Below are positions 2,071 to 32,592 of a stretch of DNA of 64,000 nucleotides, one piece after another. The position numbers were made by a program, and so were the translations under genes. The first letter of the stretch is position 1. Each line of letters begins with the position of its first letter. Source of the DNA: Gemmatimonadaceae bacterium (GTDB taxonomy: Bacteria > Gemmatimonadota > Gemmatimonadetes > Gemmatimonadales > Gemmatimonadaceae); assembly GCA_051859245.1 (NCBI GenBank), contig JBHYGA010000009.1, forward strand, positions 1-64,000. Reading direction: 5' to 3'. The notes below the pieces were generated by a model. That model did not search any database. It was not told the DNA's origin and worked only from the letters and a program-made list of their open reading frames with translations.

Positions 2071-2079
2071 CAGTCCGGA

Positions 2080-4034: not shown

Positions 4035-4050
4035 TGGCATGTTTTGTGCT
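4035..4050 (+). promoter_or_regulatory. Sigma54 promoter of PEP-CTERM gene 2
   Basis: TGGCATG-TTTT-GTGCT, with GG at 4036 and GC at 4048. Confidence 0.75.
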
Positions 4051-4103
4051 TTTCATCACGACGATCGAGTGATTCCCACCACCTAGTTTCGCGAGCGTCG
4101 CAG

Positions 4104-9254: not shown

Positions 9255-9295
9255 CAGTGGGTGTCGTCTTGCACTTACAGTCGTCTACTTTCGAT

Positions 9296-10960
9296 ATGTC
9301 CTCCGACACTTCCCTTCCGGCACCATCCCAGACTGAGCCGCACAACGCGGCACAGCGTCTTACTGCCAAGCGTGAGAACTCCGGCGAGGGTGTTCTGCGC
9401 GCAACTCTTGCTGCTATCGCTCTGCTCTTTTTTGCCATGTTTTGGCCTACCATTTCAGGTATGCCTGCTACGTGGTGGGATAAGGGCGGTCAGGGATTTG
9501 TTGTCGCCGCGTTCTGCACATATCTCATCTGGCGCGATCGCAAGCCCATCTTTGGGCAGCCGTCTCCGATTGGCGTTGCTGCGATTCTCACGATCGGTCT
9601 TTCGCTACTGTGGCTGGTTGCCGTGGTACTCAACGTCCAGCTCGTGCATCAAGCCGCGTTGCCACTGATTCTGTTGAGCTGGCTGTTGGCGGTATTTGGT
9701 CTGAACGCCTCGCGAGTTGCACTGCCGATCGTCGGGGCGTTCTTTCTGGCGGTGCCACTTTGGGGTGCATTTATTCGACCCCTCCAGTCCATGACGGTCT
9801 CCGCTACTGGAGTGCTGCTTTCCATTTTTCAACTTGAAGCGGTCGTCACTGGCGAGTACATCAAGATTCCGTCGGGAGTCTTTTGGGTCGCCGAGGGATG
9901 CGCAGGGCTGAACTATTTCCAGACCTCGCTGCTTATCAGCGTGATGTATTCCCTGCTGTTTCTAAATCACTGGCGTTCACGTTTTGTCGCCGTGGCGTTG
10001 GCAGTGGCACTTGGTGTGATTTCAAATTGGATCCGCGTGTTCGGGCTGGTTGTGATTGGCCACTACACCCAGATGCAATCGTCACTGGTGACCGACCACG
10101 TGACCTACGGTTGGGTGATTTTCGCCGTCACCATGGTCGTATTCTTTGCCTTGACCAAACGCATTGAGACGCTTGATCGAGCACGCGACGCAACGGCAGT
10201 CGCGCCGGAACAGACTGAACGAAATAGCACAGTAAAGAACGCGTTCTTTCACCCCTGGACTGCTGTGCTCCCCACGATGGCCGCTCTTGTCGGCCCAGCG
10301 CTGTTCTTTTCGCTGGGCGGCCGAGCCGCGACTGGAGAGGCCAGTGACAACGCTCCGGGAATTGTCGGCTCCAGCGAGTGGCGAAAAGTGTCTGAGGAGC
10401 GCTTCGCGGGAAACACTGTACCTGCAGAGAAAGATTCGTCATCCGACACGCTTGTTGTAACCAGCGCGACCCAAGCGGAAAGAGCAACGTCCGACGCCGA
10501 CACCGCAACCGTGTGGAAGCCGCAGTACAGAGGTGCTGACGAACATCGAATGGCCGTCTGGCAGCGTGATTCCGTAACCTTTCAGGTAGATCGTTTTCTG
10601 TACGTTGATCAGTCCCAGGGACGCGAGTTGATAAACAGCGGTAATCGCGTGGCCGCGCGCTCGCGCCGACTTGGGGATCAGGTTCTTGGACCGCTCGATC
10701 GCGAGGGGCGGATGGTCAACGCAACCGCGGTGCGAACTCCGAAAGGCGTACGTCTGGTCTGGTATTGGTACAGCGTAGCCGGGGTCACCACACACTCGTC
10801 GGGCAACGCCAAGTTTCTCGAACTCATGGCGTTTGTGAAAGCCAGAGTACCGCCGTCCGAGCTTGTATCGGTGAGTACGCTTTGCGGGCCTGACGACTGT
10901 AATGCCGCAAGTCAGCACATGGTGCAATTTGTCGCGGGCGTACAAACAAGGCAGCGGTAG
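9296..10960 (+). CDS. Exosortase (XrtA/EpsH-like) with C-terminal EpsI-like domain
   Basis: Multi-TM N-terminal part; catalytic triad-like VAEGCAG (Cys), NWIRV (Arg) and DHVTYGW (His); periplasmic tail with QSQGRELIN and LVWYWY. Confidence 0.9.
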   Translation: MSSDTSLPAPSQTEPHNAAQRLTAKRENSGEGVLRATLAAIALLFFAMFWPTISGMPATWWDKGGQGFVVAAFCTYLIWRDRKPIFGQPSPIGVAAILTIGLSLLWLVAVVLNVQLVHQAALPLILLSWLLAVFGLNASRVALPIVGAFFLAVPLWGAFIRPLQSMTVSATGVLLSIFQLEAVVTGEYIKIPSGVFWVAEGCAGLNYFQTSLLISVMYSLLFLNHWRSRFVAVALAVALGVISNWIRVFGLVVIGHYTQMQSSLVTDHVTYGWVIFAVTMVVFFALTKRIETLDRARDATAVAPEQTERNSTVKNAFFHPWTAVLPTMAALVGPALFFSLGGRAATGEASDNAPGIVGSSEWRKVSEERFAGNTVPAEKDSSSDTLVVTSATQAERATSDADTATVWKPQYRGADEHRMAVWQRDSVTFQVDRFLYVDQSQGRELINSGNRVAARSRRLGDQVLGPLDREGRMVNATAVRTPKGVRLVWYWYSVAGVTTHSSGNAKFLELMAFVKARVPPSELVSVSTLCGPDDCNAASQHMVQFVAGVQTRQR

Positions 10961-13985: not shown

Positions 13986-14062
13986 CTCTGTCGCACTTTA
14001 GTACGTTCGCCTGGTAACACTCGGCGACAGAACGATCGCGGCTGCGAAGTCGAGATTACAGC

Positions 14063-14075
14063 TAAGCTGTTGATT
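14063..14075 (-). promoter_or_regulatory. IHF-binding consensus site
   Basis: Minus strand AATCAACAGCTTA matches WATCAANNNNTTR exactly and lies between the enhancer pair and a sigma54-like box. Confidence 0.55.
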
Positions 14076-14198
14076 AATCGAGGAATAGCGCGGAGCATTG
14101 TGACCTGAATCACAATCGCACGATTCCTGCAGAACAAAGTCTCTGAACGCCACTTCGGGCCGCGAGATCGCCCGTTTCTTTTCACGCTCTGTCGACCT

Positions 14199-15191
14199 GT
14201 GTTCACTCCCGACGCCACACCACGACCTCCCGTCATTCTGATCGTTTCTGATCAGGAGTGGCTGGCTCGGAGCATTGACGCGCTCATCGCCGAGCAGGGC
14301 ATGGTCACCGTTCGCGCCTACGCCGGACGAGATGCCCTGGCGCTTGGCATGGACGCCGTGGCCGATGTTGTGGTCAGCGATACCCGACTCTCCGATATCT
14401 CGGGCGTTGATCTCGCACGAGCGCTGCAAGCCACGTCGGATCTTGGCACTGCGCTGCCGGTTATTCTGGTCACCACGCAGGACCCCGACCGACAAGCCGT
14501 GCTCGAAGCGCTCGAGGCGGGGGTCTGGGACTACCTGTCCTTTCCGTTTGACGGCGCCTTCTTCTCGGCTCGGCTGCGTACTTTCGCCGGTGCCAAACGA
14601 CGCGCTGACCGATTTCGCAACGAATCGTTGCTCGATCAGCCCACGGGCGTTTACTCGCTTCGCGGCCTGACCAGACGGGCGCGAGAACTCGGCGCAGACG
14701 TACAGCGACTGCACACGCCCATCGGCTGCGTGGCGATCGCGGCTGATATTGTGCATGAGGGGCAACACAGCGAGCCGCCCCCGGCCGAAGCCGCGCTGCT
14801 CGCTGACGTGCTCAGGAACACGGCTCGCGCGAGCGATGTGGTGGGACGCACCGGCAGCGGCGAGTTCGCGGTGTTCACCCACGGCAGCGGCCCTGAGGGC
14901 ACTGCCGCGTTCGTGGAGCGCCTTCAAGCCACGGTGAACTCCACGCCGCGTGGCGGTGGTCAGGAATGGCGTTTGCGCGCTGCCTGGTGCGCCAACGACA
15001 GTCACGATCCCACGCCTGACCCGATTGAAATGCTCAACCGCACCTCGGCTGAGCTGCGCATGATTCGCGCTGCCCACCGGGATGACGACCGCGTTCGCGA
15101 AGTGCCGGTGCCCCGACGCGTGATTCAATCGCCAGCCGCCTTTACCACGGCTGCGCGCGCGGGCGGCGCCAACGGCAGCGATTTCACCTGA
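14199..15191 (+). CDS. Atypical receiver domain plus degenerate GGDEF domain protein
   Basis: REC fold (ILIVSDQ, DVVVSD, G.WDYLSFPF); DQPTGVYS..G; RASD-X5-GSGEF in place of GGDEF. Confidence 0.8.
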   Translation: MFTPDATPRPPVILIVSDQEWLARSIDALIAEQGMVTVRAYAGRDALALGMDAVADVVVSDTRLSDISGVDLARALQATSDLGTALPVILVTTQDPDRQAVLEALEAGVWDYLSFPFDGAFFSARLRTFAGAKRRADRFRNESLLDQPTGVYSLRGLTRRARELGADVQRLHTPIGCVAIAADIVHEGQHSEPPPAEAALLADVLRNTARASDVVGRTGSGEFAVFTHGSGPEGTAAFVERLQATVNSTPRGGGQEWRLRAAWCANDSHDPTPDPIEMLNRTSAELRMIRAAHRDDDRVREVPVPRRVIQSPAAFTTAARAGGANGSDFT

Positions 15192-17542
15192 TCTTCGTCC
15201 TTCGCGGCGTAGTCGAGATAGTACGAGTAGTACTGGTACTGACCGGTCATCTTGATGCTGTTCAGCACGCCACCCAGGATTCTCACGGGCAACGTTTCGA
15301 GCGTGCGCAGCTTGGCAGCGGCCATTTTGCGGTCGCTCAGTCCGGCGCGCAGCACAATCACCATGTTGCCCGACGCAATGCCCAGCGCGTAAGCATCAGA
15401 TCCGGCGCCGAGAGGCGGTGAGTCCACGATGACCACGTCGTAGTCGCGTTTGAGCAGCTCCACGAGTTGCGTGAGTCGCGGGCCGGTAAGCAGTTCCGGC
15501 GCGCGACGCTGACGCTTGCCGCACGGAATGAGCGTGAGGTTTGGGTGATGCGTATCGCGCATGACTTCAGGCAGCAATGCCGCACCGTCGAGGTAGTCCA
15601 CGAGGCCCGGTTTGTTGCTCACCTTGAACGTTTCTTCGAGCGCACCACGTCGCACGTCGCCGTCAACCAGAATCACGCGCGAGCCGCCGTCGGCAAACGA
15701 CAACGCGAGATTGCTCGCGATCAGTGACTTGCCGTCGTTCGGTCCCGGGCTGGAAATCGTGACAGCGAATGGACGTGATGGATCCACGGCGTAACGCATG
15801 TTCATGCGCACCGTTCGGAACGCTTCCACCATTTGTGCCGCGTCTTCAACACTGCGACGGCGCTTGCGGCTGAGTTCCGGGATCACGCCGAGAATGAACA
15901 GGCCAAGCTCATCGGTGGCCTGCTGTGGGTACCGGAAGCGCTTGTCCAACATGTCGAGCAGAATGGCAAGTGCAATGCCGAGCGAAAGCGCAGCGCCGAT
16001 GGCGCCGATGATCAGGATCGGACCCGTTTTGTTGGTTGGACGGAGCGGTTCAACCGCGGGGGAAAGCACTCGCAGATCTTGCGGAGTTGTTGCTTCCGCA
16101 AGTTTGGCGTCCTGCGCCTGAATCAACATCGATCGATATTGCGCATCGGCAACGGCGACCTCTCGCTCCAGCTGCATCAATTCTATTGTGCGTGACGGAA
16201 TGTTTCGCAGATCGCGCTGCGATTCCGAGAGGTTTCCTTCGAGGTCCACAGCCTGCTGGTCCAGCTGCGCAAGAAACGCCCTGGCCGCCGCTGGTATCAC
16301 AACGGTGCGAAGACGCTGCAACTGCTGGAAGGGCCGCTGATACTGCGGATTTTCCTCAGTAATGTTCAGGCGAAGCTTTCGAAGCTCAGACTCCATGCTC
16401 ATGGCTTCGGCAAGGTCTGCACGCAGTTTTGTAGCCGCGGGCGATGAGTTTACGCTCGGAATCGACAACAATGCTTCGGCACGTACGCCACCATCTGACT
16501 CGGCGGTGAGCGCACGCTCAATCCACTCGCGGTCGCGACGCAGCTGTTCGGCCTGAATCTTCTGATTGAAGTAGTTGGAAAATACTGGATTCGACGTGAC
16601 TTCGGGCCCGGCGATCTGTGGCATCCGGCTTTCTGACGGCATCTCGGCCGTTCGTATCTTGAAGTTGCCGAGTGCTGCTTCTGCGGCGGCAAGCTGCTCG
16701 CGGGCATAGCCGAGCTGACCATCGAGGATCATTGCTCGCTGAGTCGCATTCGCGCGCTTGTACTGTGTGGCGACCGCGAGGAAGTTCTCGGTCCACATAT
16801 TCAACGTGCGTTCCGTGGTCTTTGCCTCGGTGCCAGTTAACGAGATGCGCAAGAGATTCGATCCTGCGCGCAGTCGTGGAACGTTCAGCCTCTTAATCAG
16901 GTCCAGCGAAACTTCGCGCGGCGTTGTGATAGTGAAATCGACGTTTCGCTTGCCCTGAAGCAGCTCGGCACTGGGCGTCCACGTAAAGCGAGCGGCAGCA
17001 CCGATCGGTTCGCCGATCGTGCCGCGCTGCACAATCTGCGTCGCGTTTCGAACGAGTTCGAAGTTCGTGCCCGTGATGCGGAGCGAATAATCGCCCGCAA
17101 GGACATCAAGGCCAGAAGTGAAGCTGCGCAACAATGCCGAATCGGCCGCCACAGCCGGCATCAGGTGAAGATTGAGCTGCGTGACGACGGGGTCGACCAC
17201 CGGGTAGGACACCAGCAGATCCAGCAGGCCGGCCTGCTGGAATCCATCGATTGCACCGTCGCTCGCACGCTGATCCCGCGAAAGCACGAGCACTGCCTGC
17301 ACCGAATATTCCGGCTTGACGAACCGTGTAGCGACCGTTCCTCCGGCGCCGCCCGCAAGCACGAGCAACAGCACCAGCCACTTGAATCGCCAGATTGCGG
17401 CAGCATATCGCTGGAGCTGCAGCGCACCCTTGTTTGGCGCCTCTACGCCGCCCTCGTCCCAGCCGGCCGCGGCACCTGGCTCCGAGTACGGCTGGAGTGG
17501 TGGGCCATTGTCAGGGACCTGCTGGAGATGTGTTCCGGTCAT
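15125..17542 (-). CDS. wzc: Wzc-like polysaccharide co-polymerase / BY-kinase
   Basis: Two TM segments flanking a coiled-coil region; EAFRTVR, Walker A SPGPNDGKS, DGDVRR, VIVDSPP; C-terminal Tyr cluster YQYYSYYLDY. Confidence 0.9.
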   Translation of the reverse strand: MTGTHLQQVPDNGPPLQPYSEPGAAAGWDEGGVEAPNKGALQLQRYAAAIWRFKWLVLLLVLAGGAGGTVATRFVKPEYSVQAVLVLSRDQRASDGAIDGFQQAGLLDLLVSYPVVDPVVTQLNLHLMPAVAADSALLRSFTSGLDVLAGDYSLRITGTNFELVRNATQIVQRGTIGEPIGAAARFTWTPSAELLQGKRNVDFTITTPREVSLDLIKRLNVPRLRAGSNLLRISLTGTEAKTTERTLNMWTENFLAVATQYKRANATQRAMILDGQLGYAREQLAAAEAALGNFKIRTAEMPSESRMPQIAGPEVTSNPVFSNYFNQKIQAEQLRRDREWIERALTAESDGGVRAEALLSIPSVNSSPAATKLRADLAEAMSMESELRKLRLNITEENPQYQRPFQQLQRLRTVVIPAAARAFLAQLDQQAVDLEGNLSESQRDLRNIPSRTIELMQLEREVAVADAQYRSMLIQAQDAKLAEATTPQDLRVLSPAVEPLRPTNKTGPILIIGAIGAALSLGIALAILLDMLDKRFRYPQQATDELGLFILGVIPELSRKRRRSVEDAAQMVEAFRTVRMNMRYAVDPSRPFAVTISSPGPNDGKSLIASNLALSFADGGSRVILVDGDVRRGALEETFKVSNKPGLVDYLDGAALLPEVMRDTHHPNLTLIPCGKRQRRAPELLTGPRLTQLVELLKRDYDVVIVDSPPLGAGSDAYALGIASGNMVIVLRAGLSDRKMAAAKLRTLETLPVRILGGVLNSIKMTGQYQYYSYYLDYAAKDEDQVKSLPLAPPARAAVVKAAGD

Positions 17543-17644
17543 TCTGCTGCGGGCTGGTGGGTTCGCGCCAAGGCGCGCGCTGATTCAAGAATGATCAGCG
17601 AAGGAGACTGTGGAGCAACCTTCTGGGCAACGGCGAAGAACAAA

Positions 17645-17753
17645 TGTGGCACAAAAGAGACAGTGAGTGTAGGGGCGACCCAACGCTTTCCCTTGACTTC
17701 CGGAAGAATTGGGACACACTTCGCCCGATGCAGCCCGTCGGAAATGTGCAACA
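17645..17753. promoter_or_regulatory. Cluster of putative enhancer-binding-protein sites between wzc and the activator gene
   Basis: TGTGG-N8-AGACA (17645-17662), TGTAG-N8-CAACG (17668-17685; 23 bp spacing) and CGTCG-N8-CAACA (17736-17753). Confidence 0.5.
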
Positions 17754-17971
17754 TACCGGCGAAATGACGACCAGACCCGCTGTTGGGATACGCGAGCGTC
17801 GCGGGATCTACACCGGTGTGGTGAAGTTGATACGCTTTTCCGGCTCGTGCGTCTTGACCGTGCGACACTCGGTGCTCCCACGCATCGCGGTGCCGGCGCC
17901 ACAGTTCATAACCCGGCGCCGTCCGCATCGGTCACCGCTCAGGCCCCACCTTTTCTGATCGACCGTACTTC

Positions 17972-19459
17972 ATGACCTCAAGCGCCGCCCCCATTCCTTC
18001 GGACCCCGCCAGCAGCAGCATGCGCGTGCTGGTGGTGGACGATGACCGTACGCTGCGCGAAGGCACGGCGTCGGTGCTGCAGATGGACGGGCACGCGGTC
18101 ACGAGCACGGGCCGAGGCGAAGAGGCCATTGAGCTCGTCCGGCGCCGCAAGTTCGATCTGGTGCTGGTTGACCTCTATATGACGCCGATTGGCGGCATTG
18201 ATATCCTCCGCGCCTGCCTGGACACGCATCGCGATACCATCGTGGTGGTCATGACGGGCAACCCCAGCGTGGCGTCGAGCATTGAAGCGCTGCGCATGGG
18301 CGCCTGGGACTATCTGCCCAAGCCGTTTTCGGCGTCGCACCTGCAGGTGCTGGTGGGGCGTGCGGCCCACGCCGTGGCCAGTGCACGGGATTCTCGCGAA
18401 CAAACGGCCGCACCGAGTGCTAGGCCGCAGCTCGTCACTCAAAGCGGCGCCGGTGAGCTCATGGCGCTGCTGGGCGACAGCCCGAGCTTCCGCAAAGCCG
18501 TTGACCTCGCGCAAAAGGTGGCGGGCACCGACGCGAGTGTGATGATCTCGGGCGAAAGCGGCACGGGTAAGGAAATGATCGCGCAGTTCATTCACAAACA
18601 CAGTCGGCGCGCTCAGCGCAAACTGGTGCCGGTGAACTGCGCAGCGCTTCCTGAGAACCTGCTCGAAAGCGAAATGTTCGGTTACCGCAAAGGCGCCTTT
18701 ACCGGCGCTGACCGCGACAAGGCCGGATTGCTGGAAGTAGCGAACGGCGGCACGCTGTTCCTCGACGAACTCACCGAAATGACGATGCCGCTGCAGGCCA
18801 AACTGCTGCGCGTGTTGCAGGACGGTGTGGTACGCCGGCTCGGCAGTGAAACACACGACGCCGTAGTTGACGTGCGTTTCATCTCGGCGACCAATCGTGA
18901 TCCGCAGGAGTCAGTGAAGCAGGGGATTCTGCGCGAAGACCTGTTCTATCGCTTGCGCGTGGTGCCCATCAAGCTGCCACCACTTCGTCAGCGCACCGAA
19001 GATATTCCCATGCTGGCCGAGCATTTCTTGCGTAGCTCGTGGCAGCGTCACCGCGGTAATACGGAGCCGCCGGTGTTCGGCAGCAGCGCGGTGGACTTTC
19101 TCGTTTCGCGGCAGTGGCGCGGTAACGTGCGCGAGTTGCAGAACGTGATCGAGCACGTAGCCGTAATTTCTGAACCAGGCCAGGCGATCTCGCCCGATGA
19201 TATTCCGGTGCACGATGATGGCGCTGCGCCGTCGTCGAGCGACGCGGTGATGCCGTCGGCGTATCTCAATGAGCCGTTTCACAGTGCCAAAGATCGGCTC
19301 GTGGCGGTGTTTGAAAAGGAATATCTCGCGCGTCTGACCACGCGAGCGTCTGGCAATATGTCCAAGGCGGCACGCCTCGCGGGCATTGATCGCACCACGC
19401 TCTATCGCCTGCTTGAGAAGCACGAGATTCGCCGAGACGATCCGGGCGACGGCGAGTAG
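17972..19459 (+). CDS. Sigma54-dependent NtrC-family response regulator (REC-AAA+-Fis HTH)
   Basis: Intact REC (VVDDD, VDLYM, KPF); GESGTGKE, ESEMFG, GAFTGA, LFLDE, WRGNVREL; HTH AARLAGIDRTTLYR. Confidence 0.95.
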   Translation: MTSSAAPIPSDPASSSMRVLVVDDDRTLREGTASVLQMDGHAVTSTGRGEEAIELVRRRKFDLVLVDLYMTPIGGIDILRACLDTHRDTIVVVMTGNPSVASSIEALRMGAWDYLPKPFSASHLQVLVGRAAHAVASARDSREQTAAPSARPQLVTQSGAGELMALLGDSPSFRKAVDLAQKVAGTDASVMISGESGTGKEMIAQFIHKHSRRAQRKLVPVNCAALPENLLESEMFGYRKGAFTGADRDKAGLLEVANGGTLFLDELTEMTMPLQAKLLRVLQDGVVRRLGSETHDAVVDVRFISATNRDPQESVKQGILREDLFYRLRVVPIKLPPLRQRTEDIPMLAEHFLRSSWQRHRGNTEPPVFGSSAVDFLVSRQWRGNVRELQNVIEHVAVISEPGQAISPDDIPVHDDGAAPSSSDAVMPSAYLNEPFHSAKDRLVAVFEKEYLARLTTRASGNMSKAARLAGIDRTTLYRLLEKHEIRRDDPGDGE

Positions 19460-19464: not shown

Positions 19465-20583
19465 GTGCGCAGTCCTGCAATCGGCACGCGTGTACCGCGG
19501 CCGCTCGAATCAGATAACGAGTCGAACGATATACTCGGACGTGCCGTGCAGTCGGTTGGGAAGTCAATCGACGACGCGCACTCGCCGAACACGCGCGAGG
19601 CGCTCACGCTGCGCGCTCGACTTGACGAACTTGGCGAGCTTGTCCGCCAATCACGACGGCTCGACAGTCCAGTAATTGAGGGGAGCGAACACATTGACAG
19701 TGTCTCGCGGCAGCTACTCGACCTTTTGCGCCGTCAGGTACTCCTGGCAGCGCACGCGGCGGGTGACGCGGAGGGATTCGCCGAATCACACCGACTGCTA
19801 ATGGCGATTGAATTGCTGAGTATCACCGCCGAATCGACCGCAACTATGGGTCTTCCTTGGATGCGTCACGATGCGAATGCCAAGGAAGTCCTAGCTGAAG
19901 TCGCACACGATATGCGCTCGCCACTCGGCGCGATCCTATTTCTGGTGGAGCGTGTGCGCTCTGGACAGAGCGGTAGCGTTAACGAGGCGCAGGCCAAACA
20001 ACTTGGTCTCGCATACAGTGCCGCGTTCGAACTGAATGGGCTCACGTCTGACCTCACCGAACTCGCGCATGGCGGTCGTCGTTTGACTGAGCTGGACCCA
20101 ATGCCATTTGCAATTTCAACGATCATTCACTCTGTCGAAGCACTTGTTCGACCCATCGCGGAAGAAAAGGGGCTTGAGCTGGTCACTTTCGTGCCGCCAA
20201 GGGATGTGCGGATAGGGAATGCTTCGGCTTTGACACGAGTGTTACTCAACCTTTGTACGAACGCTTGCAAGTTTACCGATGCGGGCAGAGTGGTGCTCTC
20301 AGCAGACGTGATTGACGAGGATAAAATCCAGTTCACAGTCCGCGACAATGGGCGCGGCTTGCCTGACGAGCTAGCCGCCGCGTTTTCTCCGTCTGCAGTT
20401 TCAGCGCGTCGCGGTTTCGCAATACCAGCTTCACGCCGGTTCAGCAGTACAGGACTTGGTCTCGCTATCTGTTCGCGACTAGTGACCGCTATGGGTGGTG
20501 TGATTTCGCTTGCCGACACCTCGCCAGATGATACTCGCAGCGGCACGGCTCTCACGTTTACACTTAGACTGCCGCGCGTATGA
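19465..20583 (+). CDS. Soluble sensor histidine kinase
   Basis: H-box VAHDMRSPL, N-box NLCTNACKFT, G1 DNGRG, G2 TGLGL; no TM segment; start uncertain. Confidence 0.88.
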   Translation: MRSPAIGTRVPRPLESDNESNDILGRAVQSVGKSIDDAHSPNTREALTLRARLDELGELVRQSRRLDSPVIEGSEHIDSVSRQLLDLLRRQVLLAAHAAGDAEGFAESHRLLMAIELLSITAESTATMGLPWMRHDANAKEVLAEVAHDMRSPLGAILFLVERVRSGQSGSVNEAQAKQLGLAYSAAFELNGLTSDLTELAHGGRRLTELDPMPFAISTIIHSVEALVRPIAEEKGLELVTFVPPRDVRIGNASALTRVLLNLCTNACKFTDAGRVVLSADVIDEDKIQFTVRDNGRGLPDELAAAFSPSAVSARRGFAIPASRRFSSTGLGLAICSRLVTAMGGVISLADTSPDDTRSGTALTFTLRLPRV

Positions 20584-22397
20584 GTCGAATCAAGACATTG
20601 GCGTCGAAGCTGAGAAAGTCAGGAATATTTGCTGCTGCCTGGCTGAATCGCCGGCGGCTCTCCTCTATCCCTGTTATCGGCATCACCGGGAGCGCCGGCA
20701 AGACTACAACGAAGGAGTTGTGTGTTTCCGTGCTCGCGCCTTTCGGCGCGTGTGTCAGCACGGAAAGATCCAAGAACACGTGGATGTCAGCGGCCAAGCT
20801 GATGCTCCGTCTGACATCAAAAACGCGGTTTTGTGTCGCTGAAATGGGAATTATGAGACCTGGCGGGCTGAATCTGACGCTCAAGCTCGCACAACCCACG
20901 ATCGGCGTTTTCACTCTGGTTGCGCGCGATCACTATTCAGCTTTCAGAAGCCTCGAGGCCATCGCTGAGGAAAAGAGCAAACTGATTTTTGCGTTGCCTC
21001 GTAGCGGCACCGCGATCATAAATATCGACGACGCACTGGTCCGTCGAGTTGGAGAGCAAGCCCCGTGCAAAGTCATAACAATTGGCCGTGACGAGCATGC
21101 GGATATTCGGCTCATCTCGGCACGCTCTGTTTGGCCAGAGCCACTGACCTTGCAGGTACGCGTGTTTGGCGAAGAGCACACCGTCAAAACCCAGCTTCAC
21201 GGAGAACATCTTGCTTTGAATGTTCTCGCTACACTTGGCGTAACGTCGGCGCTGCATCTGCCTCTCGATCGTGTGCTAGCTTCGCTGGAGAGTGCGGATC
21301 AGGCAGAAGGTCGCATGCAACCCGTGATCGGCGCAGACGGTGTTACTTTCTTGCGCGATGATTTCAAAGCGCCCCAGTGGTCGTTCCACGCGCCGCTTGA
21401 GGTGCTAAAGTCTTCAAGCGCCCTGCGAAAAATTGTGGTGGTCGGAACCGTTTCCGACTCGCCGGATTCTCCGTCGAAGCGATATCTCCGCATCGCTCGA
21501 GATGTCAGAAAGATAGCTGATCTTGCAGTTTTCATTGGTCGAGATGCGCAAAAAGCGCTAAAGGCGCGAAGCTCGCCAGACGACGCTTCAATCCAGGCAT
21601 TCACACAGCTGGAATACGCAAGCGCCTTCCTTAAACGCGAGCTCCGTCGGGGCGATCTTGTTCTGCTAAAAGGTACGAACAAGCAGGATCATCTCGTTCG
21701 TTTGATTCTTGACCGAGAAAATCCGATCTCGTGCTGGCGAGAGAACTGTGAGATTGAAGCCTTCTGCTCGACATGTCGGCTTTTGCACCGCGCCGAATCG
21801 AACAAGCGGGAGGTTCGAGATCCAGACGCCACCCCGATGGACTTCTGCGATCCAAGTGCCGCCACCAACGTGATCGTCGGGCTTGGTAACCCAGGCGATC
21901 GATACGCCGACACGCCTCACAACGCGGGGCACATGTTCGTCGATGGCCTTGCACTCGCTTTCGGTTCCAGATGGGAGTCCCACAGGCTTGGCAAAGTCTG
22001 CGCAGTAGAAATGGACGGCAAGCGCGTGCTGCTTTTTAAGCCGGGAACGCTGATGAATGTCAGCGGTGAGCCTGTACGTGACTTCCTTCATGAAATCGGT
22101 GGCCACCCCCATCTGCTCTCTGTCGCACATGACGAGATTGATCTTGAGCTGGGAGATGTACGGCTCAAGAAGGGTGGCGGTGACGCAGGCCACAAAGGCA
22201 TACGCTCCGTAATCGCGGGCCTTGGTACTGAAGCGTTTACGCGAGTCAGACTCGGTGTCCGCTCCTCGGTTGATAACCGGAAGGCCAAGGAGATTGTTCT
22301 CGAGCGATTCTCCGCCGCTCAACTGGAAGTCTTGCGAGGTGCATGCCAACGCGCAGGGGAACTAGTCCGGGCTACCTCCACCATGCCCACTGCGTAG
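20580..22397 (+). CDS. Fusion of MurF-like Mur ligase (middle and C-terminal domains) with a peptidyl-tRNA hydrolase domain
   Basis: GITGSAGKTTTK, AEMG, DH, EKSKL, NIDD, GRMQ and LLKG Mur motifs; from about 21867 VIVGLGNPG..Y..TPHNAG, KPGTLMNVSG, VAHDEIDL, GHKG and RVRLGV Pth motifs; one continuous ORF. Confidence 0.88.
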   Translation: MSRIKTLASKLRKSGIFAAAWLNRRRLSSIPVIGITGSAGKTTTKELCVSVLAPFGACVSTERSKNTWMSAAKLMLRLTSKTRFCVAEMGIMRPGGLNLTLKLAQPTIGVFTLVARDHYSAFRSLEAIAEEKSKLIFALPRSGTAIINIDDALVRRVGEQAPCKVITIGRDEHADIRLISARSVWPEPLTLQVRVFGEEHTVKTQLHGEHLALNVLATLGVTSALHLPLDRVLASLESADQAEGRMQPVIGADGVTFLRDDFKAPQWSFHAPLEVLKSSSALRKIVVVGTVSDSPDSPSKRYLRIARDVRKIADLAVFIGRDAQKALKARSSPDDASIQAFTQLEYASAFLKRELRRGDLVLLKGTNKQDHLVRLILDRENPISCWRENCEIEAFCSTCRLLHRAESNKREVRDPDATPMDFCDPSAATNVIVGLGNPGDRYADTPHNAGHMFVDGLALAFGSRWESHRLGKVCAVEMDGKRVLLFKPGTLMNVSGEPVRDFLHEIGGHPHLLSVAHDEIDLELGDVRLKKGGGDAGHKGIRSVIAGLGTEAFTRVRLGVRSSVDNRKAKEIVLERFSAAQLEVLRGACQRAGELVRATSTMPTA

Positions 22398-22475
22398 ATT
22401 CCGAGCAGGCAAACAACTCCCCCGTGGCCCCGCTGCGGCTCCAATTCCGCACGCTCGATCAGCTAAGGAATGACG

Positions 22476-23837
22476 ATGACGGATTCCACCAAGACCGCCG
22501 AAGGCGCGCTCGAACTGCGCGACACTCGTACCGGAACTCAGTACTCCGTTCCCATTAAGACCGAAGGCCCCGAAGGCGATACCTATATTCGGGCCACCGA
22601 CCTGCGCCCGATCAAGCAGCAGCCCGACGAGTTCGGCCTGCTCACCTACGATCCGGCCTTCATGAACACCGCGTCGTGCAAGAGCGCGATCACGTTCATT
22701 GACGGCGACAAAGGCATTCTGCGCTATCGCGGCTACCCCATTGAGCAGCTGGCCGAAAAGGCCACGTTCCTGGAGGTGGCGTACCTGCTGCGCCACGGTG
22801 AGCTGCCCAATCAGAGTGAGTACAACACGTGGGTGCACGACATCACGTTCCACACCTACGTACACGAAAACATCCGCAAGTTCCTCGAAGGGTTCCGCTA
22901 CGACGCGCACCCGATGAGCATGTTGTGCAGCGCCACGGCGGCACTGTCGAGCTTTTATCCGCAGGCCCGCGACATCGATGATCCGCACCAGCGCTACATC
23001 TCGATCATTCGTCTGCTCGCCAAGCTGCCCACGATTGCCGCATTTGCGTATCGCCATGTGAAGGGATTGCCGTTCATCTATCCCGACAATGAGCTCTCGT
23101 ACAGCGAGAACTTTTTGAGCATGGTCGCGCGCATGTCGGAGCCCAAGTACAACGCCAATCCGGTGTTCGTAAAGGCGCTCGAAGTGCTGTTCATTTTGCA
23201 CGCCGACCACGAGCAGAACTGCTCCACCAGCGCGGTGCGCGCGGTGGGATCAAGCCACGTGGACCCGTTCTCGGCCGTTGCAGCCGGCATTGCCGCACTC
23301 TTTGGCCCGCTCCATGGCGGTGCCAACGAAGCGGTGCTCACCATGATCAAGCGCATTGGCCACAAGAAAAACATTCCGGCCTTCATTGAGAATGTGAAGA
23401 GCGGCGGCGGCGAGCGCCTCATGGGCTTTGGCCACCGCGTGTACAAGAGTTACGATCCGCGGGCCCGGATCGTGAAGAAGTTGGCGGACGAAGTGTTTGC
23501 GCAGGTGGGCATGGATTCAGACCTTGAGATTGCGCTGGAGCTTGAGCGCATTGCCCTTGAGGACGAGTATTTCATCTCGCGCAAGTTGTATCCGAACGTG
23601 GACTTCTACACCGGACTCATCTATCGCTCGATGGCGTTTCCGGCAGACTTTTTCACCGTGCTGTTCGCCGTGGCGCGTGTATCCGGCTGGGCCGCGCAGT
23701 GGGAGGAGATGGTGCTCGACAAGGAACAGAAGATTGCCCGCCCGCGCCAGATCTACGTTGGCGCCGGCGAACGCGAATACAGTGACGCACTGGCGGACAA
23801 GTTTCCGCGAGCGCGGAAAGACAGTATCCGAAAGTGA
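22476..23837 (+). CDS. gltA: Citrate synthase
   Basis: DG.KG.L.YRGY, HADHEQNCST, GPLHGGAN, MGFGHRVYK, PNVDF; AAGGA RBS favours ATG 22476 (alternative 22470). Confidence 0.96.
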   Translation: MTDSTKTAEGALELRDTRTGTQYSVPIKTEGPEGDTYIRATDLRPIKQQPDEFGLLTYDPAFMNTASCKSAITFIDGDKGILRYRGYPIEQLAEKATFLEVAYLLRHGELPNQSEYNTWVHDITFHTYVHENIRKFLEGFRYDAHPMSMLCSATAALSSFYPQARDIDDPHQRYISIIRLLAKLPTIAAFAYRHVKGLPFIYPDNELSYSENFLSMVARMSEPKYNANPVFVKALEVLFILHADHEQNCSTSAVRAVGSSHVDPFSAVAAGIAALFGPLHGGANEAVLTMIKRIGHKKNIPAFIENVKSGGGERLMGFGHRVYKSYDPRARIVKKLADEVFAQVGMDSDLEIALELERIALEDEYFISRKLYPNVDFYTGLIYRSMAFPADFFTVLFAVARVSGWAAQWEEMVLDKEQKIARPRQIYVGAGEREYSDALADKFPRARKDSIRK

Positions 23838-24721
23838 CGCACGTCGGCGCCGATTCCTTGCGGCCACTCGGCGCCGAGCGGCCTGTACCAGTCTTCAGTG
23901 TTGATGTGGAAGACTGGTTTCAGGTCAGCGCGTTCGACGCGCACGTTGAACGAACGCGCTGGGACAGTTACGAGTCGCGTGTGGTGAGCAACACCGAACG
24001 GTTGCTCGACCTGATGGATGAAAGCGGAGGGCGCGGTACGTTCTTCACGCTTGGCTGGGTGGCGAAGAAGTTTCCGGCGCTGGTGCGTACGATTGCCGAA
24101 CGTGGACACGAAGTTGCGTCGCATGGATTCTGGCATCAGCGCATTCCCACCATTTCCGAAGCACAGTTTCGCGACGATGTGCGCAGCGCCAAAGCCGCGC
24201 TCGAAGATGCGTGTGGATGCATGGTGCGAGGATATCGTGCGCCTTCGTTTTCGCTTACCGATGATGTCTTGTGGGCCGCGCGCATTCTGGTTGAAGAAGG
24301 TCATGTGTACGACTCGAGCCGATTCCCAATCGCACGATCCGGATACGGCACGGCAACTGGCCGACGCGATCCGCATGTAATCAACACACCGTCTGGAGAC
24401 TTGCTGGAATTTCCGCCGGCGGTGTGGTTGTTCGCCGGTCAGCGCGTACCGGTGGCCGGTGGCGGATGGTTCCGGCAACTACCGCTCGCTGTGATCAAAC
24501 GCGGACTTGGCGCTGTGCTGGCCGACAGTATGCCGGCGGTGTTCTACATTCATCCGTGGGAGATTGACCCTGGGCAGCCGCGCATGACTGTGGGGCTCGT
24601 TACGCGGGTACGACATTACCGCGGTCTCAGCGCGGCCGAAGCTCGGCTGCGCGAATTATTGAACACTTGGAAGTTTGAAGCATTTGATTCACTGCTTGTT
24701 CTTCCGGCGGCCACAGCATGA
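23834..24721 (+). CDS. XrtA-system polysaccharide deacetylase (DUF3473-type)
   Basis: SVDVEDWFQV, TFFTLGW, HEVASHG, GYRAPSFS, GGGWFR and YIHPWEID motifs. Confidence 0.9.
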   Translation: MTHVGADSLRPLGAERPVPVFSVDVEDWFQVSAFDAHVERTRWDSYESRVVSNTERLLDLMDESGGRGTFFTLGWVAKKFPALVRTIAERGHEVASHGFWHQRIPTISEAQFRDDVRSAKAALEDACGCMVRGYRAPSFSLTDDVLWAARILVEEGHVYDSSRFPIARSGYGTATGRRDPHVINTPSGDLLEFPPAVWLFAGQRVPVAGGGWFRQLPLAVIKRGLGAVLADSMPAVFYIHPWEIDPGQPRMTVGLVTRVRHYRGLSAAEARLRELLNTWKFEAFDSLLVLPAATA

Positions 24722-25740
24722 GTGCGCTTGAAGTTCGCGAAGCAACCAGCGGCGTAGAGTGGAACGCGTTTGTTGATCAGGCTGAAGGCGGCAGCACGTT
24801 TCATCGCTGGGAGTGGCGCGATTTTTATCGCGACAGTTATGGGCATCAAACGCCGTATCTCGCTGCGTATCGCGCTGGTGCGATTGCCGGAGTGCTGCCC
24901 TTGGTGCGTGTGAAGTCTCTGGTATTCGGCCACTATCTGGTATCCTTGCCCTTCGTGAGCTACGGCGGACCGCTGGGCGAGCCCGACGCACAGCGCGCAT
25001 TGAGTGCGCATGCTGCATCGATTGCGAATGGTGCAAAGTTGGTGGAGCTGCGTTCGCGCGCCCCGATTGACACGGAGCTCACGCTTGTTTCTCGCAAGAT
25101 CACTGTGGTGCGTGATCTCGTGCCGGGCGATTACGAAGCGACGTTCAGAACATTTGACAGTAAAGTGCGCAGTCAGGTTCGACGCGCCGAGCGCGAGGGG
25201 CTGAGCGTTCGCTTTGGTCATGAGCTGCTGCCCGCGTATCATCGTGTGTTTGCTGAACACATGCGGGATCTCGGTTCGCCAGCGCACGGCCTGGAATTTT
25301 TCACGCAACTTGCGCGCGCACTCGGTGATCGCGCGTGGGTGGGCGTGGCGTTTCTTGGCGACGAGCCGGTTGCTGCTGGCTTTGCCATTGAGAACGGGAC
25401 AGAAGTGGAAATCTCGTGGGCGTCAGCACTTCGCAAACATTCAAAGATTGCGCCGAACATGGCGCTGTATGGCGCGTTTATCCGCCGCGCGTGTGAGCAG
25501 GGATTTGAAGCGTTCAACTTTGGTCGCTGCACTGCTGATTCCGGCACGCACAAGTTCAAGCGCCAATGGGGATCACGCGATGAGCCGCTGGCGTGGTATC
25601 AGTACACGCCCGGCGGCGGTGTGTCTGCGCCGCCCAATCCGGATCAGGGTGCGTACGGGACTGCCGTGAAAGTGTGGCAGAAGCTGCCGTTGTCGGTGAC
25701 AACACCGCTGGGTGCGCGGTTGATTGCGGGGATTCCCTAA
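24718..25740 (+). CDS. FemAB-like XrtA/PEP-CTERM system-associated aminoacyl transferase
   Basis: GVLPL..VKS..FG..LVSLPF..YGG, LGSP, APN..LY, FNFGR and FK.QWG motifs. Confidence 0.9.
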   Translation: MSALEVREATSGVEWNAFVDQAEGGSTFHRWEWRDFYRDSYGHQTPYLAAYRAGAIAGVLPLVRVKSLVFGHYLVSLPFVSYGGPLGEPDAQRALSAHAASIANGAKLVELRSRAPIDTELTLVSRKITVVRDLVPGDYEATFRTFDSKVRSQVRRAEREGLSVRFGHELLPAYHRVFAEHMRDLGSPAHGLEFFTQLARALGDRAWVGVAFLGDEPVAAGFAIENGTEVEISWASALRKHSKIAPNMALYGAFIRRACEQGFEAFNFGRCTADSGTHKFKRQWGSRDEPLAWYQYTPGGGVSAPPNPDQGAYGTAVKVWQKLPLSVTTPLGARLIAGIP

Positions 25741-29686: not shown

Positions 29687-30754
29687 TCATCGTGTATTGC
29701 GTGCGAATCGCTCGTAGTTGAACTCGCGAAGCGTTGGACCCACTGCCGCTTCTTGAAATTTGATTCCTGGGTGGCTCGTATTCCACTCCAGCAATGCCGA
29801 TTCCCCATTGTCATCGATGGCCAGATCCCAGCCAATAATGCCGAGATGCGGGACTTTCGCGTGAAGTCGAACGCAAGCGTCTACCGCTGCGCGGTAACCC
29901 GGAATCCGCAGATTCTCGAAAGACGCACCGGTGTCTGGGTGCCTCGTATGTCGCTTCCACACGGAGTCGGATGCAAAACTGGAGAGCGAGCCATCCCCAT
30001 CGATGACCACGAACTTCAGCGAGGTGCCGCTGGTAATGAAGTTTTTCTCTCCCACTCCCGTCCGCAAAAATGACGCGGTGAACTTGACGACCCCACGGTC
30101 ATCCAAAGCCGTGGTGACTCGCAGAGTAGCTGTAGCGTTCGGAGAGATCGGATCGAACCACTTTGCCTGTCGAACACCTCTTTGCACTACGCAATTGCCG
30201 GAAGTCGGTAGCGCCTCCAACGAGAAGTTGTCGCGGTGCAGAATAAACACACCCCGGCCGCGACTGGAACGCTCAAGTTTCACGTACACAACCGGTTCGA
30301 CTTCGAAGAGGTGCCTCTTCAACGCGGAAACCTGGATTGGCTCACTGTTAAGGTCGAACCAATTGCCATTGAGTCGGTACGCGATGTCCGGTAGAAGTTC
30401 TGTATCGAGCAGACGACGCGAGAGTGTTTTCGACATCCCGAGTTCGCGATACGGAGCGTTGATCTGTGGCAACACTCGCCATTCGAAGTAGTTGTCGGGA
30501 ATCCAACCCTCCAGAAATTCGCCGCGGTAAGCCGTATACATTTCGAGCCAAGGCATGTAGAGCTCCCGGCCGAGGACGTCGTTGGCGTATTGCCTTATCG
30601 TGCGTCGAGTTGCGGAACTGAGTTCATTTACGCCGGGGTTAGCAATGATCCCCCGGTACGCACTCCTCGCCGCCAGTATATGTTGGCGCTGAGTGTCGCT
30701 AGGTATGATTTTTCGAACGAGGCGCTTTGCTCGCGCGACAAGTGCGTTCGACAT
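29687..30754 (-). CDS. Sugar-transfer-associated ATP-grasp protein
   Basis: VKL..SSRGRG, VVQ, TLRV, HPDTG, IGWDLAI and LEWN motifs; start placed at ATG 30754. Confidence 0.85.
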   Translation of the reverse strand: MSNALVARAKRLVRKIIPSDTQRQHILAARSAYRGIIANPGVNELSSATRRTIRQYANDVLGRELYMPWLEMYTAYRGEFLEGWIPDNYFEWRVLPQINAPYRELGMSKTLSRRLLDTELLPDIAYRLNGNWFDLNSEPIQVSALKRHLFEVEPVVYVKLERSSRGRGVFILHRDNFSLEALPTSGNCVVQRGVRQAKWFDPISPNATATLRVTTALDDRGVVKFTASFLRTGVGEKNFITSGTSLKFVVIDGDGSLSSFASDSVWKRHTRHPDTGASFENLRIPGYRAAVDACVRLHAKVPHLGIIGWDLAIDDNGESALLEWNTSHPGIKFQEAAVGPTLREFNYERFARNTR

Positions 30755-30773
30755 CAGGAAACACCTGCGCTGT

Positions 30774-31711
30774 TCATTGTACTTTGCCCGAAGCGCGCTT
30801 GAGTCCATCGCGCCATGCGACACCGAGAAGGCGGTCCAATTCGGTGCGACGCCAAGGGGACGCCCCTCCACTAGGATAGTTCGTCAACTCGCCGAACACT
30901 GGCTCGCCGTTTATCAGATAGAGATCGACGCGTATAAAATCCATATTGCCGGCCAACGCGAGCGCCGTTTGCTCCAGCTGCACGTGTTGCGGTGGACGCG
31001 GCGCTTCGAAATGGTTTCTCAGCGGCGCAATCTGCTCGCCAAATGAGCTCCAGTCCGGTTTCAGAAAACAACGGCGATTCGACCCAAGCTTGTCGCGGAA
31101 CACCTGAATCATTTCAATCTTTCCTGAGAAAGTATAGAAGCGGTATTCATCGCCCACCGAACCCGTGCCATCATCGAGCAACTCCTCAAACACGATCTGT
31201 GGAGGAATATCGCGATAACACCATTCAAGCGTGTTGTTGTTTTCTGAATAGTTAAAGCTGAGCCACTTCGCCGCCTTCGCTTCAATTTCTGACTTGCGGG
31301 CGGCGAACTCTTCCCTCGAGCGCACGACTACGGTCATCGCGGATCCATGCGTAGCCTTGATTGCACAGGCGTCAACGTTCGCGGGCATGGTCAGCGGCGA
31401 GGCCGCGCGAGTCACCTGATAGATCTGCGGCACACGAAGACCGGGTGCCTTGCTCTTCACGTAGTCGCGCCTACCTTATCGGCGAACGTCGTCAGCAATA
31501 CCCGGCGATCACGAGCCTTCTTGAGATGCACCCACTCCGAGAATAGTTGGGGCTCTCGAAAACCCACGACGCCCGCATATTCGCACCATGTCCGAACGTC
31601 GAACGGCAAGAATCTCATATGCTTTAGGCGAGCAAATCCGGAACGCCGGAGCCGCGAAAGCGCACCGTACTTCCGCCCCGCGACGGGGCTGGCAGTTGCG
31701 GCGGGCGTCAT
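30774..31711 (-). pseudogene. TupA-like ATP-grasp gene split by a frameshift near 31470
   Basis: The N-terminal ORF (31457-31711) ends ..TFADKVG; the other frame continues RDYVKSK..KATHGS..EW.Y..IPPQI..EE..EYRF..FIRVDLY..FGELT; may be an assembly error. Confidence 0.75.
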
Positions 31712-32592
31712 ACGTTCCCGAACAGCAAACGTGAGGCGATCGCCTCTCCGCTACGTGGATGGAAATGCGCTCGAAGATTCGCCGGCATGTGGGTGAGTTC
31801 CCCAACTACAATACCCTTTCCGTCTGAATAGAGGTCTACTCGGACGAAAGAGAAGTCACGGCTCAGCTTGGACGCCACTTCAAGCATCTCGGCAAGGTTT
31901 CCAGGTTTGGGAATCGCATCTTTCGTGTTTGCGCGGAGTACCTCAAACGGAAGCAGATTCCACTCCACATCGTAAAGGTTTTTGCCGTGCGCACCGAACC
32001 TGTCGCGATGCACCTGAATCAAACCAGGCTTGCCGTCAGCGCACAAAATCTTGTAGTCGAGCGGCGCGTCCAGACCAAGGGCAAATTCCTCGACGATCAC
32101 TTTCGGCACAAGCGATTTGTAATTTCGCTCGCGAGTTTGATGGTAGTAGTTCGTGGCGAACCAGCGCCGGAATTTTGAACGGTCAATATCCTGGCCATTT
32201 GTTCGGAGCATTACCGGGCCGGACATGTGCGTGGGTTTGATGACGCACCGAGAGGGAAAATCGAACTTCTCACACTCCTCGACAGAGTGAAGAACGGCGA
32301 TTGTAGGCACATTGTACTGTGCGCCGACCTTCTCAAGTACGTATTCCTTTACCAGCGCCTTATCGGTCGTTTTCACCCGCAGTGGTGAGACGAGCTCACC
32401 TGAGGTTTTGATCTCATAAAGCACGTCGTTGAACATTCGACGGCCCTTCACTGGCATGCGCTTGTGCCAGCGAAGGAACCACGCGAGTGTCAGCAAGTTG
32501 TCAGCCTGCTGTGAATGCGGGAGCAATCGATTGGCGCGATTCCATAGCGACCATTCGAAATCACTAATGTGAAGGTGACGCGATTCAGACAT
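31708..32592 (-). CDS. TupA-like ATP-grasp protein
   Basis: DKALVKEYV, IKPTHMSG, E.NY..L.PKVIVEE, DYK, FVRVDLY and GELT motifs. Confidence 0.88.
   Translation of the reverse strand: MSESRHLHISDFEWSLWNRANRLLPHSQQADNLLTLAWFLRWHKRMPVKGRRMFNDVLYEIKTSGELVSPLRVKTTDKALVKEYVLEKVGAQYNVPTIAVLHSVEECEKFDFPSRCVIKPTHMSGPVMLRTNGQDIDRSKFRRWFATNYYHQTRERNYKSLVPKVIVEEFALGLDAPLDYKILCADGKPGLIQVHRDRFGAHGKNLYDVEWNLLPFEVLRANTKDAIPKPGNLAEMLEVASKLSRDFSFVRVDLYSDGKGIVVGELTHMPANLRAHFHPRSGEAIASRLLFGNV

Follow-up and report, generated by a model that had tools for sequence, protein, structure and literature searches.

Peptidyl-tRNA hydrolase (Pth), an essential enzyme encoded in single copy, is known for its rescue role in translation, and N-acyl-aminoacyl-tRNA is its defining substrate class. 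Mur-type ligases that have no N-terminal UDP-MurNAc-binding domain, such as FolC, MurT, PgsB and the M domain of cyanophycin synthetase, act on substrates other than UDP-MurNAc. FemAB-like proteins are known users of aminoacyl-tRNA, and those of the FemABX/MurM type, including the XrtA-associated TIGR03019 proteins, decorate glycan precursors with tRNA-borne amino acids. Peptide aminoacyl-tRNA ligases (PEARLs), which are related to LanB, extend scaffold peptides for natural products; as described in passages of PMC11962472, a carboxylate is phosphorylated with ATP and condensed with the amine of an aminoacyl-tRNA, after which the tRNA is hydrolysed. Here we describe a gene that joins a MurF-like ligase region to a complete Pth domain, found in a 64,000-nt stretch of contig JBHYGA010000009.1 from a Gemmatimonadaceae bacterium (the whole of this stretch is referred to as the window, and coordinates without a locus label refer to it). 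This fusion is a genuine, conserved architecture, neither an assembly artefact nor a housekeeping gene. The reading that we prefer, if only tentatively, takes PEARL chemistry as its analogy: the fusion would be an accessory cytoplasmic amide ligase of an exosortase/PEP-CTERM-type exopolysaccharide pathway that follows a PEARL-like, tRNA-dependent order of steps.

The fusion open reading frame (ORF) is built as follows; aa, amino acids; pLDDT, predicted local distance difference test; AF2, AlphaFold2.

20580..22397, + strand: Mur ligase–Cys4–Pth fusion ORF, 605 aa (ORF list, Pfam and NCBIfam)
20583..20657, + strand: N-terminal basic helix, aa 2–26 (DSSP helix, pLDDT 90–96)
20682..21242, + strand: Mur ligase central (ATP-binding) domain, aa 35–221 (Pfam Mur_ligase_M PF08245, E = 1.4e-31)
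21309..21677, + strand: Mur ligase C-terminal domain, aa 244–366 (Pfam Mur_ligase_C PF02875, E = 1.2e-9)
21732..21776, + strand: Cys4 motif, aa 385–399 (alignment conservation)
21777..21863, + strand: variable, partly disordered linker, aa 400–428 (AF2 pLDDT and length variation in the alignment)
21870..22373, + strand: complete Pth1-type peptidyl-tRNA hydrolase domain, aa 431–598 (Pfam Pept_tRNA_hydro PF01195, E = 4.4e-45)

An earlier reading of the letters and ORF list (the original prediction) had described a single 605-aa ORF coupled by an ATGA overlap to a histidine kinase gene, and both sources confirm it: the ATG of the fusion overlaps the TGA of the kinase ORF (19465..20583) by 4 nt, in the letters 'gtATGAgt'. 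Pfam, NCBIfam, AF2 and Foldseek agree with its description of a MurF-like ATP-binding and C-terminal region joined to a complete Pth. Both Mur matches exceed the Pfam gathering scores, and a Pfam scan of the fusion at E values up to 0.1 gave no domains besides Mur and Pth. The AF2 model, based on 120 homologues, has a mean pLDDT of 92.4 and a predicted template modelling (pTM) score of 0.86, with pLDDT below 50 confined to aa 409–419 and the final three residues. Its closest folds in Foldseek were MurF 4qdi (TM score 0.74 on the target) and Pth 2z2i (0.90); MurF structures were the best fold matches of the Mur part (0.71–0.74 on the target), and no solved chain spanned both parts among the matches listed. 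A complex prediction of the Mur part (aa 1–402) with the Pth part (aa 426–605), using 120-row alignments and run without controls, scored 0.00 in both runs, the mark being 0.32. Because the model has no signal peptide and no membrane segment, only the basic N-terminal helix, the protein is likely to be cytoplasmic.

The architecture recurs widely. A word-indexed protein search returned 699 relatives at E values up to 1e-3, and the best 120 of these all carry the three domains in 582–701 aa; the genomes named among them include Kineobactrum, Nitrosomonas, Aromatoleum/Azoarcus, Marinobacter, Thioalkalivibrio and Syntrophales, and source annotations call relatives either 'aminoacyl-tRNA hydrolase' or 'MurF'. 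The fusion is also the shared architecture of two ESM-Atlas clusters with 85 and 128 members. In a collection with a single genome for each of 185,579 species, a pattern search gave 387 matches, of which 276 code for a relative. From these 276 stretches we fetched 71 loci for context work, mostly from Pseudomonadota and also from Rokubacteria, Nitrospira, Acidobacteriota, Lentisphaeraceae and Syntrophales; 71 full-length copies from the fetched loci and the window protein make up a set of 72. It is thus highly improbable that the fusion is an assembly artefact, or the genome's only MurF and Pth in ordinary housekeeping roles. An artefact is ruled out by the recurrence of the fused ORF in other genomes, both in the best 120 of the 699 relatives and in those 71 full-length ORFs. 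A housekeeping role is contradicted by the up to four tandem copies per locus, by the missing MurF N-terminal domain, by a murF score below the cut-off and by the family's presence in just 276 stretches among all these species genomes. The fusion is therefore real and accessory, as had been proposed, and the window's genome presumably carries separate pth and murF genes elsewhere.

The Mur module is best classed as a member of the Mur ligase family that is not MurF proper. With MurF and its family it shares the central ATP-binding and C-terminal domains, the P-loop, the Mg-binding E and H and the conserved K. In an alignment of 120 sequences, K41 and T42 of the P-loop GITGSAGKTT are invariant, as are E88, H118, N148, D150 and R245, while K132 and D151 recur in 90% or more. 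E88, H118, K132, N148 and D150 align with E. coli MurF, K132 lying opposite the second K of 'AKAK'; we take the Glu, the His (of the 'DH' motif), the Lys (carbamylated in MurD, MurE and MurF) and the N-x-D-D strand to form the Mg/ATP site. Identity with MurF itself is excluded because three defining features are absent. First, the NCBIfam murF model TIGR01143 scores 193.4 bits against a cut-off of 288.6. Second, its match spans model positions 69–407 of 418 and leaves 1–68 unmatched, so that the N-terminal domain is missing; BLASTP correspondingly aligns fusion residues 19–287 with residues 91–358 of E. coli MurF, and the basic helix of aa 2–26 occupies the place of the UDP-MurNAc-binding domain. 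Third, RDDFKAP stands opposite DDSYNAN in the same BLASTP alignment, in place of the MurF D-D-x-Y-N-A-N motif. The lack of the N-terminal domain and the DDFKAP variant of DxYNANP had both been read correctly from the letters. As the domain that holds UDP-MurNAc in MurF is absent, the acyl substrate of the Mur module would be a different one. The motif RDDFKAPQWS (aa 259–268) lies in the Mur C-terminal domain together with R245/M246; D261, K263 and W267 are invariant in the 120 sequences, and 90% or more of them have R259, D260 and P265. MurT and cyanophycin synthetase are only weak NCBIfam matches to the fusion.

Beyond RDDxKAPxWS in place of DDSYNAN, the fusion differs from MurF by an added tail that carries four cysteines ahead of the Pth domain. 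This Cys4 motif, C385-W-x3-C390-x5-C396-x2-C399, was overlooked in the original prediction. It is invariant in 25 of 25 and in 120 of 120 sequences and is modelled with a pLDDT of about 85. We assign it to the Mur module because relatives that consist of the Mur part alone retain it, and the four invariant cysteines suggest that it is probably a metal (Zn) site.

The C-terminal part appears to be a bona fide Pth1 domain, although not the housekeeping Pth. It shares with Pth1 the complete fold and the catalytic and substrate-binding residues tested, scores 150.9 bits with the NCBIfam model pth TIGR00447 (cut-off 100), matches positions 1–169 of the 183 in the Pept_tRNA_hydro profile and is 38% identical to E. 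coli Pth in BLASTP. As the original prediction stated, the equivalents of N10, H20, N68, D93 and H113 are kept, as N437, H447, N493, D518 and H538. Across the 72 full-length copies, the equivalents of N10, H20, N21, N68, H113 and R131 are present without exception, and the D93 position is D in 71 and E in one. K105 and R133, which we take to clamp the 5'-phosphate of the tRNA, correspond to K530 and R557; the first position is R in 38 copies and K in 32 (basic in 70 of 72), and the second is K in 37 and R in 34 (basic in 71 of 72). Because the catalytic residues of both the Mur and the Pth parts are kept throughout the family, both active sites are under selection.

By contrast, the domain departs from the profile of a housekeeping Pth, which is a standalone protein of about 190 aa in single copy: it is the C-terminal domain of a 605-aa protein, occurs in up to four copies per locus and resides in polysaccharide loci. 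In a FastTree phylogeny, a single branch with 98% SH-like (Shimodaira–Hasegawa-like) support separates the 72 fusion Pth domains from 113 standalone Pth proteins (standalone hits were limited to 170–230 aa, E. coli Pth was included, and P0242, a fusion fragment, was dropped). Searches with the Pth part for shorter proteins recovered ordinary standalone Pth at no more than 48% identity and the fusion fragments P0241 and P0242; these searches were aimed at split forms, and they did not show a standalone Pth in fusion-bearing genomes. The same kind of search with the Mur part recovered mostly fragments from short contigs.

The original prediction had also seen marks of repurposing in TPHN (for TRHN) and GHKG (for GHNG). 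The letters are correct, P446 replacing R19 and K539 replacing N114 of E. coli Pth, but we reject the interpretation: the R19 position is P in 42 of the 113 standalone proteins and the N114 position is K in 56 and R in nine, so that both substitutions are ordinary variation and give no sign of a changed function. A family-specific change lies elsewhere. The F66 position is F, Y or W in 111 of the 113 standalone proteins, whereas the fusions carry A, P, N, S, K, L or another small or polar residue there; loss of this aromatic could mean an altered Pth substrate. It would suit a Pth recruited as a non-tRNA esterase, acting on an O-aminoacyl or O-acyl sugar ester or on a phosphate-bearing carrier. 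The K at the R133 position in 37 of 72 copies and the scarcity of linked tRNA genes (none in the window, and four in three of the 58 loci scanned) point the same way, and the basic clamp could bind another phosphate, in undecaprenyl pyrophosphate (undecaprenyl-PP) or a nucleotide. We nevertheless consider such an esterase unlikely, because the domain retains the full set of catalytic residues and the two basic clamp positions of a tRNA-acting Pth and the score exceeds the curated pth equivalog cut-off. In addition, to our knowledge the only well-known Pth-fold protein with another role is plant CRS2, which is among the PDB matches of the Pth part, and it is not an esterase.

On the preferred, PEARL-like reading, the two activities would act in sequence on one substrate. 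This narrows the function put forward in the original prediction, an enzyme that would build or edit a peptide on a tRNA or another ester carrier or else pass it to glycan. The Mur module would use ATP to form an acyl phosphate from a carboxylate on a polysaccharide precursor, candidates being, on a unit linked to a nucleotide or lipid, a sugar acid or an earlier-added residue. Attack on the acyl phosphate by the alpha-amine of an aminoacyl-tRNA would then give an N-acyl-aminoacyl-tRNA, and the tethered Pth would hydrolyse its ester, releasing free tRNA and a new carboxylate. Tandem paralogues, two to four in number, would add one residue each and extend the chain from N to C as MurC–F do, and the window's single copy would add one residue. 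We infer the carboxylate substrate, the aminoacyl-tRNA as amine donor and the order of steps from what would be the simplest chemistry in which a single substrate calls for both activities. Such a scheme would account for the presence of a Pth in each array member and for the rewritten MurF amino-acid motif, and the carboxylate freed by one paralogue could feed the next. The likeness to PEARLs lies in the proposed chemistry only: the proteins are not homologous, the fusion has no LanB-like fold (Pfam gives only Mur and Pth), and it is found in polysaccharide loci with a dedicated hydrolase domain, whereas PEARLs serve natural products. The fusion does not descend from FemABX/MurM-type enzymes either; these have a GNAT fold, need no ATP and pass the acyl group of aminoacyl-tRNA to an amine, a polarity opposite to that proposed here.

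Literature searches found no characterised protein of this architecture, in agreement with the original prediction. Full-text searches (supplementary files aside) gave no paper on a Mur ligase–Pth fusion, although a mention in Iyer et al. 2009 is possible. Term searches found no mention of the fusion in Haft 2006 (PMC1569441) or in the Lipocone paper (PMC12419801) and no match for Pth or Mur ligase in a 2026 review of aminoacyl-tRNA-dependent enzymes (PMC12945691), and the passages on the Rubrivivax cluster table (PMC3684757) list no Mur or Pth gene. Matches in PMC5744179, PMC13751637 and PMC12452194 had no bearing on the fusion. The fusion is an uncharacterised conserved architecture that probably carries out a new reaction.

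Family members occur singly, in arrays and in rearranged or reduced forms. A family ORF is present in 66 loci, as one copy in 50, two in 13, three in one and a row of four in two, so that tandem arrays of two to four copies are found in 16; the window has a single copy. The larger arrays and the variants are listed here with positions within each fetched locus.

L053:4103–11749, Propionivibrio: array of four full-length Mur–Pth paralogues
L056:7975–15620, Rhodoferax: array of four full-length Mur–Pth paralogues
L024:5981–11836, Nitrosomonas mobilis: array of three full-length Mur–Pth paralogues
L038:5948–9280, Thioalkalivibrio denitrificans: Mur–Mur–Pth variant, 1110-aa ORF (the source annotation lists a 621-aa protein)
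L011:8144–9655: Pth-then-Mur variant ORF, cut by the contig end
L001:8558–9859, L023:9965–11209, L025:3517–4878 and L027:9956–11254: Mur-only ORFs of 414–503 aa, uncut by contig ends
L043:9719–11230, L044:9899–11146 and L051:9923–11272: further Mur-only ORFs, also within 414–503 aa and uncut by contig ends

A tree of the full-length proteins splits into two clades, each with 100% support. Clade A (31 rows), to which the large arrays belong, consists mostly of Rhodocyclaceae and Comamonadaceae; clade B (41 rows) includes the window protein, whose nearest relative in the fetched genomes is that of a Porticoccaceae metagenome-assembled genome, at 47% identity. Array members pair across genomes and not with their own neighbours (L028_7881 with L034_7982, 99%; L053_9854 with L067_578, 100%; L053_6021 with L042_20, 98%). 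Because array members are orthologous between genomes, the paralogues are old and have been maintained, a pattern that fits the expectation for distinct specificities.

The arrays and the Mur-only forms bear on a rather unlikely alternative in which two independent activities are merely co-expressed. Here the Mur part would ligate a free amino acid to a precursor, and Pth would clear N-blocked or stray aminoacyl-tRNA by-products left by ligases of such loci, whether FemAB-like and tRNA-using or of other kinds, sparing the tRNA pool. Mur ligases normally use free amino acids, Mur-only derivatives exist, the Pth part resembles an ordinary Pth that passes the curated cut-off, and FemAB-like genes are present in the window, all of which would agree with such a division of labour. 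An intact Pth of its own in every copy of arrays of up to four would, however, be redundant for clean-up, a job that the housekeeping Pth presumably already fills; FemAB-like clusters occur in only six loci each, and the fusion Pth forms a separate, old clade. The Mur-only forms are nested among the fusions in the tree, where seven rows need six changes, and L001_8558 among them shares 79% identity with the Mur part of a complete fusion. This pattern points to repeated loss of the Pth domain within the family.

We then considered the genes that surround the fusion in other genomes. A glycan-type neighbour is present in 53 of the 71 loci as well as in the window, which bears out the predicted tie between homologues and glycan loci. 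The other 18 loci include several on short contigs, one with a family 4 glycosyltransferase (GT4; L033) and one with a pyruvyl transferase (L050). Clustering all ORFs of the fusion loci gave the following recurrent neighbours (GT2, family 2 glycosyltransferase; PLP, pyridoxal phosphate).

38 loci: ATPgrasp_ST
18 loci: polysaccharide deacetylase
15 loci: asparagine synthase
14 loci: GT4
14 loci: GT2
12 loci each: two alpha/beta hydrolase clusters
11 loci: Wzx
11 loci: Wzy_C
10 loci: PLP decarboxylase
9 loci: DegT aminotransferase
6 loci: AMP-binding ligase
6 loci each: two Acetyltransf_6 (FemAB-like) clusters

The commonest and most conserved neighbour of the fusion is ATPgrasp_ST (PF14397, 'sugar-transfer associated ATP-grasp'), which Iyer et al. 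(2009) are said to have defined. A hidden Markov model built from the ATPgrasp_ST cluster finds it within 10 kb in 39 of the 71 loci and in the window; it adjoins the fusion or array in 24 of 68 sources and lies within 5 kb in 36 of 68. ATPgrasp_ST shares these loci with the fusion and is predicted to be an amide ligase that forms an acyl phosphate, yet its fold is unrelated and it has no tRNA-linked domain.

Polysaccharide deacetylases generate free amines on sugars, and their frequency (in 18 loci, with three or four genes in the window) speaks for an alternative hand-over scheme in which Pth acts first. Pth would hydrolyse a specific N-acyl-aminoacyl- or peptidyl-tRNA made by another enzyme, and the Mur part would re-activate the resulting carboxylate with ATP and join it to an amine, for example that of a de-N-acetylated amino sugar. 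The absent N-terminal domain could mean a small acyl substrate, as this scheme would have it, and the Pth–Mur order also occurs (L011). We regard the scheme as improbable: energy would be wasted by hydrolysing an activated ester and re-activating it with ATP, a FemAB-type transferase would make the transfer directly, and no peptidyl-tRNA-making enzyme is conserved among the clustered neighbours of the loci.

The window's own neighbours proved a poor guide to the family. When 17 window proteins were run by tblastn against the 71 loci, the citrate synthase was found in none, the response regulator in one, the kinase in two, the XrtA deacetylase in five and FemAB in three, and we therefore rejected the immediate neighbours as conserved fusion partners. 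Coupling to a kinase and a nearby citrate synthase are peculiar to the window. FemAB-like proteins, of which the original prediction noted two in this locus, accompanied the fusion in a minority of loci only, those of the two Acetyltransf_6 clusters.

Besides the lost F66-position aromatic, several observations weigh against the tRNA-dependent ligase that we prefer. Binding of tRNA and the role of aminoacyl-tRNA as donor are both putative. Dedicated tRNA genes are rare: the window has 0, and the 58 loci scanned of the 71 have the four noted above. The fusion has ATP-grasp genes as its main partners in preference to FemAB-like ones, and the ATP-grasp ligase class uses free amino acids. The Mur-only relatives imply that a Pth in cis is dispensable for the Mur module, whose own substrates may be free amino acids. 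The linker between the two parts is disordered at aa 409–419 (pLDDT below 50). Finally, not every family member has a glycan setting: in L061 and L062 the flanking genes are those for pyruvate carboxylase and SecA, and in L025 and L027, both Mur-only relatives, the surroundings are housekeeping genes.

The window itself is a large exosortase/PEP-CTERM polysaccharide locus. An exosortase–DUF3485 gene marks it as a system of this kind, and an exosortase, PEP-CTERM proteins, a TIGR03006 deacetylase and a TIGR03019 protein are all found in the window. The relevant genes are the following.

2033–3010 and 4044–4799, + strand: two PEP-CTERM proteins, upstream of the polysaccharide genes
9257..10960, + strand: exosortase (EpsH) fused to a DUF3485 (EpsI-like) domain
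17972..19459, + strand: sigma-54-dependent response regulator, PEP_resp_reg-like (below cut-off), first gene of the same-strand run
19465..20583, + strand: histidine kinase, overlapping the fusion start by 4 nt
22470..23837, + strand: type I citrate synthase (NF004126, 602 bits, cut-off 505)
23834..24721, + strand: XrtA-system polysaccharide deacetylase (TIGR03006, above cut-off)
24718..25740, + strand: FemAB-family XrtA/PEP-CTERM-associated protein (TIGR03019, above cut-off)
29687..30871, − strand: nearest ATPgrasp_ST gene
39599–40756 and 40669–41799, + strand, and 51166–52356, + strand: further ATPgrasp_ST genes
29687–32592 (−), 36052–37236 (−), 39599–41799 (+) and 51166–52356 (+): spans of the ATP-grasp genes
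42881–43936: second FemAB-like gene

The two FemAB-like genes are those that had been counted in the original prediction. Also in the window are a Wzc-like kinase, an export protein, a priming transferase, Wzy_C and a low-molecular-weight phosphatase. ATP-grasp genes are unusually numerous, with four ATPgrasp_ST, two TupA-like and one ATPgrasp_Ter-like; the ORFs at 29687–30871 and 30774–31460 overlap by about 100 nt, probably because a start is miscalled or the 228-aa TupA-like ORF is truncated. The citrate synthase gene begins 72 nt past the fusion, inside the polysaccharide operon, and has a 4-nt overlap with the XrtA deacetylase gene; it is possibly the cell's gltA or a dedicated copy, perhaps a supplier of carboxylate. 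At the edge of the locus, an ORF fusing homocysteine S-methyltransferase to MTHFR (60436–62346, + strand) stands beside a full MetH (55708–59343, − strand), the B12-dependent methionine synthase. Four sizeable ORFs of the locus have no Pfam or NCBIfam match (13998–15128, −; 17539–17928, −; 47898–49748, +; 49732–51111, −). The sigma-54 promoter consensus has eight matches against 7.31 expected, which is no enrichment, and a search for promoters and terminators inside the operon gave none that was convincing.

The annotation names 'aminoacyl-tRNA hydrolase' and 'MurF' both mislead for this family. In the passages of PMC13390463 that treat it, Pept_tRNA_hydro is a 'bacteria71' single-copy marker model. 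Because it is used in this way, the extra Pth copies of array-bearing genomes could inflate estimates of contamination or redundancy, and such genomes may score as more contaminated than they are. For the organisms themselves, the finding means that an intact Pth is built into polysaccharide biosynthesis in many environmental bacteria, among them nitrifiers, Marinobacter, floc-forming Thauera, Aromatoleum and Propionivibrio. A broader claim, more doubtful than the reading that we prefer for the fusion, is that Mur–Pth proteins form an unrecognised class of ATP-driven, aminoacyl-tRNA-dependent amide ligases. Each would join one residue brought by tRNA to a carboxylate of a polysaccharide precursor and be reset by its own Pth domain, and arrays of up to four would be a small template-free assembly line building an exopolysaccharide peptide stem. 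Less likely still, this stem could serve exosortase as the acceptor for PEP-CTERM proteins, a counterpart of sortase and the lipid II bridge built by FemABX. If the tRNA-dependent mechanism is true, the family would represent a new enzyme class in non-ribosomal, tRNA-dependent peptide-bond formation, and peptide-decorated exopolysaccharides would be predicted in biofilm and activated-sludge organisms.

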